Assembly: GCA_964016885.1 (NCBI GenBank)
Contig: OZ024743.1
Span: 75,764,001-75,828,000 of the forward strand
DNA: 64,000 nt
Source of the DNA: Eledone cirrhosa
Taxonomy: Eukaryota
Reading direction: 5' to 3'
The notes under the pieces: generated by a model
What the model was told of the DNA's origin: nothing
The model's database searches: none
Seen by the model: the letters and a program-made list of their open reading frames with translations, nothing else
Program-made: the position numbers and the translations under genes
In this document: positions 8,285 to 62,343 of the stretch, in pieces
How positions within the stretch are numbered: the stretch's first letter is position 1
Layout of the letters: each line of letters opens with the position of its first letter

Positions 8285-8344
8285 CCAGGTAAGTAGTATA
8301 AAATATGTCACAACACCGTGACATATTTTATACTACTTACCTGG
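8285..8344. repeat. Perfect 27-bp inverted repeat with a 6-nt loop
   Basis: ccaggtaagtagtataaaatatgtcac-aacacc-gtgacatattttatactacttacctgg. Confidence 0.95.
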
Positions 8345-26049: not shown

Positions 26050-26178
26050 AGTTTAACCCAGCCCCATAAAGATGAAAGGCAAAGCTAACCTCAGTGGGTT
26101 TTGAACTCAGAACATAAAGGACCGTAACTCTATGTCGCAAAGCACGCTGTCCGACGCTCAACAGATTCTGCCAATCCA
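26050..26178 (-). mobile_element. SINE 5' part abutting a truncated PLE
   Basis: gatgaaaggcaaagctaacctc..ttgaactcagaac...gtccgacgctc..gattctgccaatcca. Confidence 0.8.
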
Positions 26179-28481
26179 TAAAATATTCAATAGGAATACC
26201 ATCAAACTGTCCTACTCCACAACCAGTAACATAGCTCAGAATATAGCTAAAATGAATTATAGTAGACTTAGGACAGCCCAAGGGGGCACTAGACATGGCA
26301 GAACTAATGGCAGCTCTATCGATGAACGGACTCATACATGTGAGGCGAGTCGGGTCACCCCAACTCCTGGGAACTTACCCATAGAGGAGACAAGAACTGA
26401 GACCCGACCCCAAAGGTACCGTGGTTTCTCTGGAACTACCCAGGTCGATAACAGAAAATGTAATTGCAGGAACACCGCCACTTGCCCCATGGCTGGGAAA
26501 TGCCTCACCAAAAACATAGTCTACGACTGTAAGGTCTCCACTCTTGATAGAACCTTCAGGTATGTTGGTGCAACTGCCACTGAATTTAAGGATAGATGGT
26601 ATAATCACCGCCATACCTTTAATAGATTAGATAAAAAGAAAATAGCACGGCGCTTTCTGAATTAGTCTGGAAGCTTAAACAATAGAATATAGAGCACTCC
26701 TTATCCTGGTCCATAGTGTGCTCAGCCCAGCCTTATAACGGCAGCACTGGCATCTGTAATTTGTGCATAGCTGAAACCTTTAATATTATTAGAGGCGGCC
26801 CCCTATTAATTAATAGGAGAGCGGATATTTTCAGCAACTGCCAACATAGAACCTCGAAAACCTTCCGCAGGATTTTTGGAAAATAACCCACCACTAACTC
26901 CACCCTACTTTAGCCATAGAGTTCTCTCAATAAACAGACAATCACACACTCAGGTAGTTAGACGGCTAAGATCGTTTGCGCACTTACAAACGGTACTCGG
27001 CCTATTTCTGAGTTCTCACAGCTGAGTGCACTTTACAATACCTAGTTAGTAAATAGTTAGAATGATTACACACTCAGAATACCTAGTTAGTAAATGATTA
27101 AACACTCAAGTAAGACCGATTACGTTCATTTACCTTTACTTTAAGATACCCTAACCATTGAGTTCTCTCGGTTGGGATTTAGCTAGACGTATTGAACACT
27201 CAGTTAAGACCGTTTACGCTCTCTATACATAACCCTACACACAGTACCCGTTTTCTTTAGACATTGAGTTCCCACAGTTACGACTGGTCACGTTCCTACC
27301 GATTGAACACTTCACTAGGTTTTGATCATCTAACCATGGAGTGCTCACAGTTACGGATTGAACAATAATACTTACACACCACTAATGAGCCTACACACAT
27401 CCTCTAGGTTTTGCTACCCTTTGTTATTTTACTTTACTTTTTGTGTTGGATAACACACCTCCACCACTCAAACACATATCTTAAAAGCCCAAGGGCCCAT
27501 ATGACGGGAAATCGCACTTACTGACACCTTAACCCAAATACCCAACCCTACACGGAGCCCCTTGCTGGCCTACATAGCGGTTGCTTGCACGTACAGATTT
27601 GGGGACTCGGATTCTCAATGGGACAGCGGTACATACTGAGTTCGATATGAGCTGATTGCTTGCTCTTCACATGGATGTGTATATACCTAGACATGCACTT
27701 TTTTGGACGATACGGATGTGTATATACCATAACATACACTATTTGGAGATACGGATGTTACAATTCAATCTATACACGTATAGCAGAACACTGAACTGAA
27801 TTTGCTTGCTTGTGTGTGTATGTGTGTGTGTATGGTGCTGTGGTTGACCCAATATTTCCAATTTGCATCGTCAAATTGAGATTTAACCAATGTAGCATTT
27901 GTTGTTTTGTAAACTAACTTTCGGTGAATGCTATGTTGGTATATTCTTATATTTACTGTTTTTTCTTTGATATCGCTTCGGTGTGTGTGAGAGTGTGTGT
28001 GTACCCACTCACACTAATTGTGACCGTCTATAGTTCTACAGATTTGATACTGTGTTGATGTGTGTATATATATTTATATCTTTTCTTTGACTTCGAGTCG
28101 GTGTGTGTGGGTGTTAAGTGTGTATGTACCCACTCACATTAACTGTGACCGACTGTATTTCTACAGATTTGATTGATGTTCAGCGTCTTTTGCAGCTATT
28201 GGGATATAGAAATTTGATAGTTTTATGACCTTAACTGAAGTTGATAGCAGTCGCCGCATTTTGACTGCTTGATCTTCATATGAGGGAATAAACTCTGTGA
28301 GTGAACATTACTAATTTTCTCCCTCATATCAAGAATTTGAAGACAATTCATTTTCACCTGATTAGATCAGTGATAATTGATCATGGCTTCACGATCGATT
28401 TATCTTTTATTGAAACATGTGTCATGATTAAAATGATTGGACATTTTACCTTGCCTTCGGATTTTCATTTTGATATGTATA

Positions 28482-28521: not shown

Positions 28522-30757
28522 TATAACTCAAACCACCCCCGATCCACAATTAAATCCATAGCACGAAGTATGTCCCTTAGAATATCCCGCTTATCCTCAA
28601 ACCAAGAAATGTTTAAAGAACATGCTAACTATTATAACGCAGCATTACGTAGGGCTGGACACAAAGAAAAGTTGCAGTTTATAACGGATAACGACAACAC
28701 AAATAAACCCATTAACACCGATACCAACCGCTCATACAAAAATAGAGGAGGTAACCGGACTAGACATAAAAGTAGGCAAATACGACCTTGAGTAGGAGGA
28801 CCGAGCACGAATAATGTAAACCCCAGAAACTATAGAAGAACTAGAGAAAGAAAATACCTTTGGTTTAATCTAATCTTCAACTCCACTATAAGAACTAAAC
28901 TGCCTTCTACGTTCTTTAAACTAATAGATAAGCACTTCCCTATATGGCATAGAAATCATAACATCTTCAATAGAAAAACTATAAAGCTCTCATACTCTAC
29001 TGCTGCAAACATTGAATCGCACATACGCAAGATCAACCACAATAATACCTCTAGGAAAGATATCCCACCCATACGCAACATAGCACCAAACACAAAACAC
29101 AAACACATTACAGTATCACAACCGCAAACGCACATGAACACACCGCAGCAAAACTTCAATAGGCATAAATCACAACCCACATACAATATCTTACAAAACC
29201 GCAATGTGAAAGCTGCACAGAGTAGTACTCCGAACTGCAACTGTCGCCTACCGGATAAGTGCCCACTAGCGAATAGGTGCCTTAATTCGGGCCTAGTGTA
29301 CATGTGTACTATAAACTTGGGCAACTCCACTTGGCACTACATTGGATCCACCGCGAGTGCTTTTAAAAAAAGATGGTATGTGCACAGACACTGAATGAAG
29401 AACCGTGCACTGATAAATTCTACAGCCCTCGCCAATAAAATCTGGCAACTTAAGGACAAAAACCTTGATTATAATATTAGCTGGTCGAAATTGGCAACCG
29501 CAAAGACATATAGCAGCGGTATGTCCTACTGCGGACTCTGCAACCTTGAATTGCTGCATATCTTAAGGAACGATAAAATACTACTCAACAGCAAAATAGA
29601 AAGGTCAATTTTCTGCAGACATAGGATTGCTACAAAATCCGCGAGATTTAAACCACCGTGATTCGAACCAATACCACTTAGCTTATAACATTTGAAATCC
29701 GCCTCCTCACACAGCCCATACGGAACTATAATCTTCTAGAAATACCTTATAGCCTCCCTAATTCTATCCCACTGGAAGATGTCTACAACTATCTTATCAG
29801 CCCATAAATCAATCCTACCTTCGCTGTTATCCACTACTTCGGACCAAGGATTTATATCTCTCATTAGCACTAACGATCTCTAACAGATGAACCTAATTCT
29901 AAGTACATTATTTTATTACTCCTACACCCCTTGAAATCTCACTTTCCTCTTCTTCTTCTTCTTTTTCTTCTTCTTATTATTATTATGAACATCTCAATAT
30001 AGTCCTAATATTATTCATCATGTTCTATATACCTACCATGCACATTTTACTACTTTACTACCTTCTGTCATTTATACACGATTTGTTATTGATGCTGTGA
30101 AAAGTAAACCCCACGATTCGAACTAACAATCCCTACCTTTAGTATAGGCCACTTAAATAACGAATCTACAACTCTATTTAACACCACATAAAAGCTATCA
30201 TCATCACTAAATTAATCAAACGAAAATGTTTATCTGTCAAATAATAAAAAAATAAAAAGTAAATCTCCGGTTTATTGCTAGAATACCTACAGCACAGTGG
30301 ATACCTCATAAATTCTGTCTCTAAATACATCTTAGTGGTTACTGTTATCTATTCGCTACCCCATCACTATATCTAATGTACCCTGTAGCAGTTTTCACAT
30401 GTCAATTCCATACATCTGTATCATATCAGTCTGTTTAACATGCTAGATTCTTCATTATACTCTATCTCTTACTTATATTAATGTTATTATTTTAATTGTC
30501 TGCTATCTAGTTATTTTATTTTATCAGTGATATTATTGTTCTGGTTTAATACCACACTTATATAAAAACCATGCCTTATGTATTTTCTTCATTTCACCCG
30601 CTCCGATAAAAAAGACTGGTTATAAACAAAGTATTGGATATCGATTGGCGCAAAATCAGGCGTATAGCGAACTCTAGACCTGCCAGATCAAAGTGTCAGC
30701 AATGTGAATAAAGCCCTTATTGTATAGCGAACTATGTCAATCTTCTTTCTTGAATTA
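28518..30757 (+). mobile_element. 5'-truncated Penelope-like element 2: RT thumb, linker and GIY-YIG (single frame 28519-29661 with two internal TGA), flanked by (TA)n on both sides
   Basis: SNHPRSTIKSI..SMSLRISRLSS, YNAALRRAGH, WFN, LIDKHFP, IFNRKTIKLSYS, CNCRLPDKCP, VY..YIG, FKKRWY.H, STALANKIW, CGLC, CRH. Confidence 0.9.
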
Positions 30758-40365: not shown

Positions 40366-40449
40366 CAGATTAAAGTTTAAGCAAAGAATCGGTGCTTTCA
40401 CCCTTAACGGGATCTTCAGAAGATCCCGTTAAGGGTGAAAGGAGCGATT
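40363..40449 (-). mobile_element. Mini fold-back copy of the 55971-57259 family terminus
   Basis: 23-bp perfect arms 40395-40417 and 40419-40441. The tail acagattaaagtttaagcaaagaatc matches 55987-56011. Confidence 0.85.
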
Positions 40450-40928: not shown

Positions 40929-40961
40929 TTCAGTCATGGTAGTGTCACTACCATGACTGAA
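40929..40961. repeat. Perfect 16-bp hairpin running into GAAAC (probable hammerhead stem II remnant, + strand)
   Basis: ttcagtcatggtagtg-t-cactaccatgactgaa(actgttgagt). Confidence 0.7.
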
Positions 40962-41666: not shown

Positions 41667-41793
41667 TATATATGTATATATATACATATATATGTATAAT
41701 ATATAGACTCCCTTTATTTATATATGTATAGATGTATGTATGTGTTTATACACACACACATACACACACATATACACACATATATATATATAT

Positions 41794-41836
<43 letters not shown>

Positions 41837-41859
41837 CATACATACATACATACATACAT

Positions 41860-41954
<95 letters not shown>

Positions 41955-41964
41955 CATATATATA

Positions 41965-42520
41965 TAAATATAAGTATGTATACGTACATACATATATGTA
42001 TACAGACGTACAGTAGTATGTATATACATACACACATGCACACATATATATATATGTACGTATGGGTTTACCGAACATTTATTATAATGCTCGGTTTGCA
42101 TGTAAACAAACAGCCCGAATTATTAGCCGTACAGTGTTCGGCAACCATCGTTGCCCTTTTGATCAAAACTGACAAAAGAACGATGAACTAGTTTCAAACA
42201 TTCAATCGACTGACAGGATGCTGATGACAGCTAAGAAGCTAGAAACTAGTTCATCGTTCCTTTCTCAGTGTTGAACAAAATGGCAACGATGGTTACCGAA
42301 CACTGTACGGCTAATAATTCGGGCTGTTTGTTTACAAAAAAACCGAGCATTATAATAAATTTTCGGTAAACCCATACGTACATATATATATATTTGTGCA
42401 TGTATGTATGTATATATATATACTACTGTACGTCTGTATACATATATGTATGTACGTATACATACTTATATTTAAGTATCAGCCGTACTAAGAGTGAGAA
42501 ATGAAATTTCATTTTTTCCA
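41965..42520 (+). mobile_element. Fold-back PLE-type terminus with ~230-bp inverted arms, embedded in (TA)n
   Basis: Arms 41965-42195 and 42242-42474. The loop carries the 5' half of a hammerhead. Confidence 0.85.
42217..42255 (+). ncRNA. Minimal type I hammerhead ribozyme
   Basis: GATG-CTGATGA-c-AGCT-aaga-AGCT-a-GAAACTAGT-T-CATC, with a 4-bp stem I and palindromic stem III (ACTAGT). Confidence 0.7.
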
Positions 42521-42546
42521 CATATATATATACATATATATATATG

Positions 42547-42899
<353 letters not shown>

Positions 42900-55970: not shown

Positions 55971-57259
55971 ATATTTATTAAAATAGCAGATTAAAGTTTA
56001 AGCAAAGAATCGCTGCTTTCACCCTTAACGGGATCTTCTGAAACTAATAAAGTCAATCTGTAAACGCAGAAGTGGATATTTCAAAAAACGTTGCAACCGG
56101 AGGAAGACGGGAAGACGATACTTTGGTTCGTGGAAACGTTCCCTGGCAAAGAACGGGAAAAAACGAATATAATACGTCATTAATAGGAGCGGTGAAAAAC
56201 AATTACGCACAAAGACAGAACCACGTTTATGGTATAAAAGAAGTCGTAGACTAATGTTCTCTTAGGTGGTTCATAGAGACGTTCTCTGGCAATGAACGGA
56301 AAAAACGAAGATAATACGTCATATGTGGAGCGTGGAGAACAATTGCACGCAAAGACAAAACCACGTAAATGGTATAACTGAAGTCGTAGACTAAATTCTA
56401 ACTAGGAAACCGAATGAATCTCCGCTTCAGAGTTAAGAAAAAAGTAAATAAATGCAATACAGGGGTAATAGAAATTAAATAAATGCATACACACATTCAA
56501 ATACGTACATACACAAGCATACACAAAACACTTGCCATAGGTATACAAAACCACGCACATATAAATATGTAGGTACGTGGGTGCGCTTGTTATATACGTA
56601 TTTATTTATTTATATACGTTTATTTAATTATTTATTTATATACACGCACATACACACACACATATTTATATGTGCGTGGTTTTGTATACCTATGGCAAGT
56701 GTTTTGCGTATGCTTGTGTATGTACGTATTTGAATGTGTGTATGCATTTATTTAATTTCTATTACCCCTGTATTGTATTTATTTACTTTTTTCTTAACTC
56801 TGAAGCAGAGATTCATTCGGTTTCCTAGTTAGAATTTAGTCTACGACTTCAGCTATACCATTTACTTGGTTTTGTCTTTGCGTGCAATTGTTCTCCACGC
56901 TCCACATATGACGTATTATCTTCATTTTTTTCGTTCATTGCCAGAGAACGTCTCTATGAACCACCTAAGAGAACATTAGTCTACGACTTCTTTTATACCA
57001 TAAACGTGGTTCTGTCTTTGCGCGTAATTGTTTTTCACCGCTCCTATTAATGACGTATTATATTCGTTTTTTCCCGTTCTTTGCCAGCGAACGTTACCAC
57101 GAACCAAAGTATCGTCTTCCTGTCTTCCTCCGGTTGCAACGTTTTTTGAAATATCCACTTCTGCGTTTACAGATTGACTTTGTTAGTTTCAGAAGATCCC
57201 GTTAAGGGTGAAAGCAGCGATTCTTTGCTTAAACTTTAATCTGTTATTTTAATAAATAT
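55971..57259. repeat. Large inverted repeat: two ~600-bp near-identical arms with an ~89-bp spacer (probable inverted PLE pseudo-LTR pair)
   Basis: Arms 55971-56570 and 56660-57259. The mirror ORFs 56072+ and 57158- differ at only two residues. Confidence 0.95.
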
Positions 57260-58420: not shown

Positions 58421-58608
58421 TAATATATATATATATATATATAGTATTAAGGATACTATTTATGGTTATGTATATACTAAAACTTTTTATAGTTATGTAT
58501 ATTTTAAACCCTAAACAGTGAAAGACAGTCATTTATTACTACCTTATTACCAGTAAGATAAATAGCTCAATGTAATAACATCAGTTGTTCTACAGAGCAG
58601 TTATATAG

Positions 58609-58687
58609 AAATCACATGAATCAAAGTTCTGTTCAAACCATTTATTGTAAGCTAATACATGGCTTGAACAGAACTTTGATTCATGTG

Positions 58688-58691
<4 letters not shown>
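58609..58691. repeat. 33-bp inverted repeat abutting (TA)n
   Basis: aaatcacatgaatcaaagttctgttcaaaccat / atggcttgaacagaactttgattcatgtgattt. Confidence 0.9.
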
Positions 58692-58749
<58 letters not shown>

Positions 58750-58754
<5 letters not shown>

Positions 58755-58929
58755 AACCAGTAAGACCCCGACGGCTGAGCTCAAGCCGTTTCGACGGCTA
58801 ATTAGCCGTCGAAACGGCTTGAGCTCAGCCGTCGGGGTCTTACTGGTTCCTATTACCCACTCTACTACCCTAAGTATTGAGTACTTTGGTGCGTTATGGT
58901 CCACCTGGTTCCTTACCACATTTCCTTCG

Positions 58930-58931
<2 letters not shown>
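58750..58931 (+). mobile_element. PLE-type terminus with a perfect spacerless 104-bp palindrome (58750-58853) centred on hammerhead stem II
   Basis: GACGGCTA-AT-TAGCCGTC-GAAACGGCT-TGAGCTC-AGCCGTC. (TA)n lies on both sides. Confidence 0.85.
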
Positions 58932-58985
<54 letters not shown>

Positions 58986-59028: not shown

Positions 59029-59287
59029 TTTCGTCTGAATTTGTTTAGCAAGATTCTTTATCTGAAAACGTGTGTTGAAACCGATGTTGTTATACTTTGG
59101 GAGGGTCATGTTGCCAATAAGAAACACACGCACCAATTTAGACGGCTATTTTAGTCCAGAAATCGCCGTCGAAACGGCTTGAGCTCAGCCGTCGGGGCCA
59201 TACTTTCTCCTATTACCCACTCTACCACCCTATATTGAGTACTCTGGTGCGTTATGGTTCACCTGGTTCCTTACCACAACTCCTCCG

Positions 59288-59289
<2 letters not shown>
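59029..59289. mobile_element. Chimeric head-to-head fusion of two (TA)n-associated termini
   Basis: 59029-59135 is the reverse of the 42.76-42.86 kb family. 59141-59289 is a second copy of the 58.8 kb family with its native stem II. Confidence 0.8.
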
Positions 59290-59321
<32 letters not shown>

Positions 59322-59451
59322 TTATATATGGGGTGTGTGTATATGTGTCTCTGTGTATGTGTGCGTATGCACATCTCTCTCTGACTCTTTATATATGTAC
59401 ATATATAAGAGTCAAAGAGAGATGTGCATACGCACTCATACACACACACAC

Positions 59452-61398: not shown

Positions 61399-61440
61399 TA
61401 TGTGTGTGTGTATGAGTTTGTGTAGGTATGGTACACTATA
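59895..61440. repeat. (TG/TATG)-derived compound satellite with local higher-order duplications
   Basis: Recurring gtaagtatgtatgtgtatatgtgtgtctgtatat and gtaggtatggtgcactatat motifs. Confidence 0.85.
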
Positions 61441-61481
61441 TGATTGGTTGGCTGTTCAGTTAGGCCAACGACTGTCGTTGC

Positions 61482-62343
61482 AACAACTACAAGATGTCAG
61501 TAACGTCATCTAGATGTTAGTAACCACGTCTAGATGTTAACAACGACGTCTAGATGTCAGTAACGACGTCTAGGTGTTAGCAACGACGTCTAGATATCAG
61601 TAACGACGTCTAGATGTTAGCAACGACGTCTAGATGTCAGTAACGACGTCTAAATCTTAGCAACGACGTCTAGATGTCAGTAACGGCATCTAGATGTTGG
61701 TAACGATGTCTAGATGTTAGTAACGACGTCAAGATGTTAGCGACGACGTGAAGATGTTAGCAACGACGTCTAGTTGTCAGTAACGACATCTAGATGTTGG
61801 CAACGTCTAGATGTTAGTAACGACGTCAAGATGTTAGCAACGACGTCTAGATGTTGACAACAACGTCTAGATGTTAACAACGACATCAAGATGTTAGTAA
61901 CGACGTCTAGATGTCATAACGACGTCTAGATGTTAGCGACGACGTCTAGATGTTGGTAACGACGTCTAAATGTTAGTAACGACGTCAAGATGTTAGCGAC
62001 GACGTCAAGATGTTAGCAACGACGTCTAGTTGTCAGTAACGACATCTAGATGTTGGCAACGTCTAGATGTTAGTAACGACGTCAAGATGTTAGCAACGAC
62101 GTCTAGATGTTGGCAACAACGTCTAGATGTTAGCAACGACATCAAGATGTTAGTAACGACGTCTAGATGTCATAACGACGTCTAGATGTTAGCGACGACG
62201 TCTAGATGTTAGTAACGACGTCTAGATGTTAGTAACGACGTCTAGATGTAGTAACGACGTCTAGATGTTAGCAACGACGTCTAGATGTCAGTAACGACGT
62301 CTAGATGTCAGTAACGACATCTAGATGTCAGTCTAGATGTTAA
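61482..62343. repeat. 20-bp CpG-rich palindromic minisatellite, about 43 copies
   Basis: aacgacgtctagatgt(t/c)ag(t/c), with a 256-bp higher-order duplication (61721 vs 61977). Confidence 0.95.

Follow-up and report, generated by a model that had tools for sequence, protein, structure and literature searches.

The window analysed here is a stretch of 64,000 nucleotides of Eledone cirrhosa DNA. Positions 58750-58853 form an exact palindrome with arms of 52 nt, a spacer of 0 and a centre at 58801/58802, as an earlier note on this sequence had described. The palindrome sits between two (TA)n tracts, and 83 more bases of the same repeat family follow on its right. Folded as single-stranded DNA, it reaches -70.3 kcal/mol (z -23), a value equalled by 0 of 200 shuffles. 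Aligned with the full-length unit of its family, numbered so that +1 is the first base of hammerhead stem I, it resolves into an inverted arm, whose outer end at +109 is joined to (TA)n and is one of two fixed starts, and a direct arm that continues into a tail (Table 1). The earlier note had centred the axis on stem II of the ribozyme, and it does fall inside that stem, at the self-complementary AATT of the 3' strand and not at the loop, a junction class shared with locus L173. Stem III and the GUC, which the note had recognised, belong to the 3' half of a hammerhead, and the 5' core is indeed missing from both window copies at the place where CUGANGA had been expected. Its wider proposal, a Penelope-like element (PLE) inversion produced by reverse transcription in a hammerhead-bearing family, is upheld by what follows. 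The one-sided tail is the counterpart of the PLE tail described in PMC8557442 (Fig. 2 legend) and in PMC11167929.

Table 1. Features of the palindromic copy and of its sister copy, in window coordinates.
Feature	Position	Strand	Basis or remark
(TA)n target, left side	58691..58752	.	sequence; last three bases common to arm
Inverted arm	58750..58803	-	element +109 to +56; blastn against full-length unit, 98%
Direct arm	58800..58936	+	element +56 to +192, i.e. 3' half of hammerhead and tail; blastn 97%
Axis	58800..58803	.	self-complementary AATT, element +56 to +59; 4-nt microhomology common to both arms
Type I hammerhead, 3' half	58800..58838	+	fold of one intact copy; consensus fold of 10 intact copies
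Stem II 3' strand	58800-58810	+	part of hammerhead 3' half
GAAA	58811-58814	+	part of hammerhead 3' half
Stem III	58815-58832	+	part of hammerhead 3' half
Predicted GUC cut	after 58833	+	part of hammerhead 3' half
Stem I 3' strand	58834-58838	+	part of hammerhead 3' half
83-nt tail	58854..58936	+	element +110 to +192; on one arm only
(TA)n target, right side	58931..58983	.	sequence; first bases common to arm
Sister copy, inverted-arm remnant (15 nt)	59137..59151	-	cut off by another repeat
Sister copy, direct arm	59150..59294	+	+46 to +192 of related subfamily; 87% to reference unit

The sister copy had been taken to show the native stem II. Of its first 15 bases, 14 match the downstream strand's reverse complement, and its junction is the same as in the inverted copies L003 and L013; the supposed 5' strand of stem II is therefore the remnant of an inverted arm. 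Intact copies carry a stem II of 54 nt with a different 5' strand. The repeat that truncates this arm, at window 59030-59136, occurs also at 42680-42803; it has short inverted arms and is frequently found directly against (TA)n (22 of 210 loci). When the sister copy served as query, a DNA search gave 4,203 first-look candidates, 40 of which were scored, and many of the 30 loci inspected were head-to-head.

A pattern search of the genome for an intact ribozyme 5' half had matches at 2,660 places. Among them are tandem arrays of a 3,542-bp unit, with copies 99.8-100% alike, and in each unit the hammerhead is directly followed by an open frame of 784 codons. The encoded protein has 2,163 homologs at E 1e-10 (7,998 candidates scored). 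It contains the motifs YRDD, FLD and VIYQC...YIG, kept in 25 homologs, and represents a single ORF with a reverse transcriptase plus a GIY-YIG nuclease at the C terminus. The RW[K/R] motif reads RWR in this element (K in 20 of 26 aligned proteins), DKG is changed to DKT (25 of 26), and the CxCX5C linker, together with the CxxC and CxH near the conserved E and N, is kept in 25 of the 26 aligned rows; by eye, the GIY-YIG core holds only one cysteine (no CCHH). Because Pfam and PDB sequence searches with this protein gave no match, assignment to the Hydra clade rests on the protein motifs and the (TA)n target, and on these grounds the source, a young and abundant element, appears to be a Hydra-clade PLE. 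Exact +192/(TA)n ends number 21,662 in the genome, and exact +109/(TA)n ends 20,231. The window palindrome belongs to a set of many thousands of very small head-to-head Penelope-like insertions in TA repeats.

The likeness to the Hydra clade (Craig et al. 2021, PMC8557442) extends from the single ORF, C-terminal GIY-YIG, RW[K/R], DKT, CxCX5C, CxxC and CxH to the (TA)n target, the hammerhead in the pLTR, the tandem and inverted copies and the tail at one end. In contrast to that description, the unit here measures 3.5 kb (the clade is 'generally <3 kb'), the hammerhead is non-canonical, with U3-A8 and a 54-nt stem II, and most copies are palindromic minis of 100-200 bp; a length under 3 kb and a canonical hammerhead are general, not strict, traits of the clade. 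A non-LTR retrozyme, which would form non-coding tandem arrays with a short ribozyme unit, was also considered and rejected, as the repeat unit is a 3.5-kb coding element and the minis carry only half a ribozyme. Broken proteins of related PLEs, 32-34% identical to the element ORF (tblastn), lie in the window at 26177-26865 and 28528-29655. Elsewhere, L077:6771-9901 and L078:171-3742 belong to one young multi-unit insertion whose inverted junction carries about 65 repeats of a 55-bp ORF segment, suggestive of repeated slippage on the template or of a small template circle.

For intact copies, folding yields a type I hammerhead with its three helices, yet the z of -0.13 is no better than that of shuffles, and 0 of 15 pairs are compensatory among 10 copies. 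The core reads UUGANAA instead of CUGANGA. A manual tally of the first 100 listed of 7,070 cores gave U3-A8 in 74, C3.A8 in 24, U3.G8 in 2 and C3-G8 in none, so that the intact CUGANGA copies which the earlier note had proposed to look for are absent from this sample. All four bases occur at position 7 in the same 100; a compensated 3-8 pair, U3-A8 in 74 of them, and a free position 7 are what a type I hammerhead core should display. An Rfam scan of the window, which holds half motifs, gave no match at gathering score. U3-A8 cores have been reported for Schistosoma PLEs, and the S. mansoni hammerheads (Cervera and de la Pena 2014, PMC4209133) resemble the present ones in their U3-A8 covariation, an extra base before stem II, a long stem II and the occurrence of motif pairs on opposite strands; they are minimal motifs without a full helix III, whereas stem III here has 5-6 bp. 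Subfamilies with the C3.A8 mismatch (L102, L156, L016:850-948; 24 of the 100 listed cores) have spread nonetheless, and given this spread cleavage may not be needed for mobility.

The way in which arms are joined was studied at the first 100 of the 21,662 exact tail ends along contig C1. At least 68 of these consecutive ends have an inverted arm, a lower bound since the BLAST filter overlooked at least one inverted copy (L161); the inverted arm starts at +109 in 62 cases and at +107 in 2. One locus with a tail on both arms (L106) was left out before the counts that are given below on 67 junctions. Arm ends are uncertain by some bases at complex junctions (L100, L105, L118, L124, L185) and at junctions with a variant base at +48 (L097, L114, L143, L150). 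A second sample consisted of 18 long inverted insertions, chosen by eye as close minus/plus pairs in the list of 2,660 places (20 stretches were fetched, three of them covering one locus). In 17 of the 18, +109 is paired with +192 (p 1.4e-4 against independent choice). Exceptions to this pairing are L085 (109/109), L106 (192/192) and three sites found in both of the mirror lists compared below.

We consider it probable that the palindrome is a Hydra-type Penelope-like head-to-head mini-insertion in (TA)n that arose by twin priming, the process invoked for L1, where both ends of a break prime on one RNA and an inversion results (Ostertag and Kazazian 2001, via PMC2246262). Once the target is cut, its two DNA ends would each start reverse transcription on a single element RNA, the first from +109 and the second from +192. 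The two cDNAs would then run to the 5' end of the RNA, the +192 cDNA displacing the +109 cDNA, and their 3' ends would be joined bluntly, through a microhomology of 1-6 nt (AATT in the window copy), or with a few added bases. The outer ends are fixed, and either arm may hold sequence that the other lacks, which is the signature of twin priming. Near-equal numbers of +109 and +192 ends, and their pairing, are expected if each cut end primes at one of the sites.

Further evidence comes from the arms themselves. The arms of one insertion agree at subfamily sites in 39/39, 39/39 and 38/39 pairs, and they differ at 1.3 positions on average within insertions against 3.1 between insertions. Equal ends are more frequent than expected: the two arms stop at an identical base in 15 of 67 junctions (3.4 expected), and still in 10 of 62 (3.2 expected, p 0.0008) when palindromic overlaps are removed. 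The shared variants and the excess of equal ends fit one RNA copied twice up to its 5' end, although arm-to-arm conversion at a later stage could explain part of both. The priming itself, and the single RNA template, are what we infer from these patterns in the end products.

Where would the 5' end of such an RNA lie? Among 134 arm ends, 99 fall at +45 to +56 and only 4 at +13 to +44, so the clustering of axes at stem II, which the earlier note had suggested checking, does exist, in a family with 13,114 short junctions genome-wide. Direct template jumps also begin at +46 to +50 (L098, L190, L208). The ends peak at A45 and A49, in the contexts TCATTT and T(T/C)AGTC, both of which resemble TCAKTY, the Drosophila initiator. 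An untemplated G is the expected trace of a copied cap; one precedes A49 at 9 of 50 listed sites read manually, with 6 more ambiguous. Over the stored loci, A49 is preceded by C in 25 cases, by G in 12 and by A in 6, the C being templated in some subfamilies, which leaves the cap signal mixed. No downstream promoter element was seen by eye at the Drosophila spacing. On balance, the main hotspot at +45 to +56 seems likely to reflect an internal transcription start at the initiator-like A45/A49 within stem II; internal promoters with an initiator have been described for Drosophila Penelope (PMC2377424). A unit-length RNA, its transcription starting inside stem II, would lack the 5' half of the ribozyme, and sequence is probably lost where CUGANGA was expected because the RNA begins downstream of the core. 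A splice acceptor as the origin of the +51/+56 ends was rejected, since the cDNA would continue into the upstream exon.

A minor hotspot lies at the predicted cut: in about 235 insertions, both arms end at or next to G90. Untemplated bases were added at 27 of 52 listed G90 joins, 42 of the 49 such bases being A or T. In the neighbouring control, 1 of 50 listed sites has its ends at 87/87. We slightly favour the view that this hotspot records the 3' cleavage product of the ribozyme used as a template, and the pattern suggests ribozyme cleavage in vivo; pausing at the foot of stem III could also produce G90 ends.

The most durable of the other explanations, though we find it unlikely, retains twin priming and attributes the ends to polymerase stalling at an RNA structure or a bound protein, or to two RNAs of one locus, in place of run-off on one RNA. 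It would account for ends spread over 12 positions, for a cap-like G that does not dominate and for the location of G90 at the foot of stem III. It sits badly with a boundary that stays constant across subfamilies whose upper stems differ, with the abrupt drop 5' of +45, with the excess of equal ends and with an initiator-like sequence at both peaks.

The earlier note had explained the palindrome by self-priming, a cDNA folding back on the ribozyme's own helix. In any fold-back, whether of cDNA or of antisense RNA, the sequence of one arm is wholly contained in that of its partner, and the loop keeps the sense orientation. This geometry is possible in 14 of 68 junctions; in 35 the loop would be shorter than 3 nt, and in 19 it is the tail-less arm that is longer, by a loop of at least 3 nt. 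In 6 of the 68 the arms have no overlap at all, and such non-overlapping joints are also found in contigs of independent sequencing runs. Of 67 junctions, 25 have a tail-less arm that extends further 5', 27 have the longer 5' reach on the tail arm, and 15 are equal. Genome-wide, exact mirror junctions comprise 95 with the longer arm on the tail side and 126 with the tail arm shorter. Among the long insertions, the tail arm is the shorter one in 10 of 17, and the unshared middles, which attain kilobases, occur in both orientations.

Could an original fold-back polarity have been hidden by later events? Palindromes are unstable, and spacers might flip by recombination between the arms while centres are deleted on one side. 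Mirror pairs that resemble flips exist (L025 against L027), and arms are more alike than chance, as this scenario would have it. However, flipping from an all-sense start cannot carry the antisense class beyond 1:1, and that class is the larger one (126 against 95, p 0.043; exact 78-nt matches). In lopsided copies the tail-less arm still ends at +47 to +56 (L109, L113, L141, L184, L194, L196), and deletion would not yield the untemplated bases seen at symmetric joins. We regard a rearranged fold-back as improbable.

Self-priming in its simple form, with the inverted arm primed by a cDNA or antisense RNA that has folded on a ribozyme helix or micro-hairpin, fares marginally worse and is quite improbable for this palindrome. 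Private variants common to both arms, and axes within stem II, are what it would produce, and PMC3846280 argues for it from palindromes at inverted junctions. Nevertheless, the native stem II helix, lower or upper, was used in 0 of 67 junctions, so the idea that ribozyme stems double as priming hairpins fails for stem II; what stands of it is a small class in which stem III serves as a junction microhomology (424 sites when all ends from ~+72 to ~+87 are counted), and the two of these that were oriented both have an orientation impossible for fold-back. The window copy would require a loop of zero nt, and its AATT is better read as two annealing 3' ends. Because junctions exist in which neither arm contains the other, fold-back is not the main route, and the kilobase 'loops' in both orientations point the same way; it fails as a general route, and a minority of junctions may arise by it.

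A third possibility is that the palindrome formed once and then spread whole, like a MITE or a SINE. An identical 26-nt palindrome core is indeed present at 122 sites of the 3.0-Gb host genome (control pattern 0). Those 122 represent only about 1% of the 13,114 short junctions, which vary base by base, and this one junction is seen in several subfamilies and with a tail at the left or at the right; spread of this kind is very improbable, and within its family the single window palindrome is unremarkable. That the palindrome is a library or assembly chimera, as the earlier note had wished to see excluded, can practically be dismissed because the core recurs at 122 sites, with differing flanks and several subfamily variants in the 15 inspected; the outer ends are moreover fixed in (TA)n and family junctions appear in other runs, and the fact that no listed contig piece from four runs spans the window axis is evidence neither way.

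A broader version of twin priming can be proposed tentatively, as a possibility that we rate below an even chance. Integration would occur by obligate twin priming, a dimer bound near the 5' end of the RNA priming both target strands at the two fixed sites of that one RNA and copying up to its 5' end. With the promoter inside the hammerhead, only read-through tandem transcripts would hold a whole ribozyme, and its cut would leave a second, uncapped template, with a footprint in the genome. If true, a single model would cover inverted pLTRs, the one-sided tail, partial tandems and the role of the ribozyme.

The closest biochemical parallel is PAc, a Poseidon element of Anolis carolinensis (Frangieh et al. 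2024, PMC11167929). In vitro it cleaves and then extends each of the two target strands, with synthesis starting at two internal sites that delimit the tail, and it shares with the present element a predicted dimer and an AT-rich target. PAc belongs to another clade, and in vitro no strand difference in start site and no role of ribozyme cleavage were seen, which speaks against the twin-priming model proposed here; inverted repeats are left unexplained in the parts of that study considered here, and reads gave no evidence of a ribozyme cleavage footprint in vivo. Unlike those of PAc, the starts of the present element match the target (TAT), and +109 pairs with +192.

L1 differs in that its second priming site varies and there is hardly any overlap between the two parts; in the present family both sites are fixed, lying 60 and 143 nt from where the RNA probably begins, and in most cases the same stretch is copied twice. 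Inverted PLE ends, the one-sided tail and junction palindromes are already known (PMC8557442, PMC3846280). The Penelope elements of Adineta vaga (Arkhipova et al. 2013, PMC3846280) have head-to-head pLTRs, an optional tail, junction palindromes and an initiator-like motif; there the junctions were explained by self-priming on an antisense template, which the junction statistics contradict for the present family. The main text of PMC8557442 calls the origin of tandem and inverted PLE structures undefined. No paper proposing twin priming for PLEs was found in a search that reached few subscription papers and no supplements, and a preprint (10.64898/2026.07.22.740005) does not treat inversions in its text.

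The interest of this family is that a single genome holds over 20,000 of its young insertions together with an intact coding source. Its junctions rule out self-priming as the principal route and agree with priming by both target ends at two fixed RNA sites, in keeping with what the anole element does in vitro; they also hint that the RNA starts within the ribozyme and that cleavage leaves a footprint in vivo. Twin priming would be a testable answer to the question of how PLEs make inverted repeats.

Several other inverted repeats lie in the same window. A head-to-head repeat of 1.29 kb (55971-57259), with arms 95% alike and unequal outer ends, is inserted in (TA)n; it represents another abundant family, present at 22 of 210 stored loci, and has the layout of the palindrome's own family. 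A mini version of it, with a 1-nt spacer, is found at 40387-40449. Next to the palindrome, a hairpin at 58602-58698 with exact arms of 28 nt and a 27-nt spacer uses the palindrome's left (TA)n, and has relatives in 4 of 210 loci. Inverted repeats or near-spacerless palindromes of other families occur at 41770-42679, 8285-8344, 40929-40961 and 59372-59440, and a tandem array with a 20-bp unit occupies 61435-62000.
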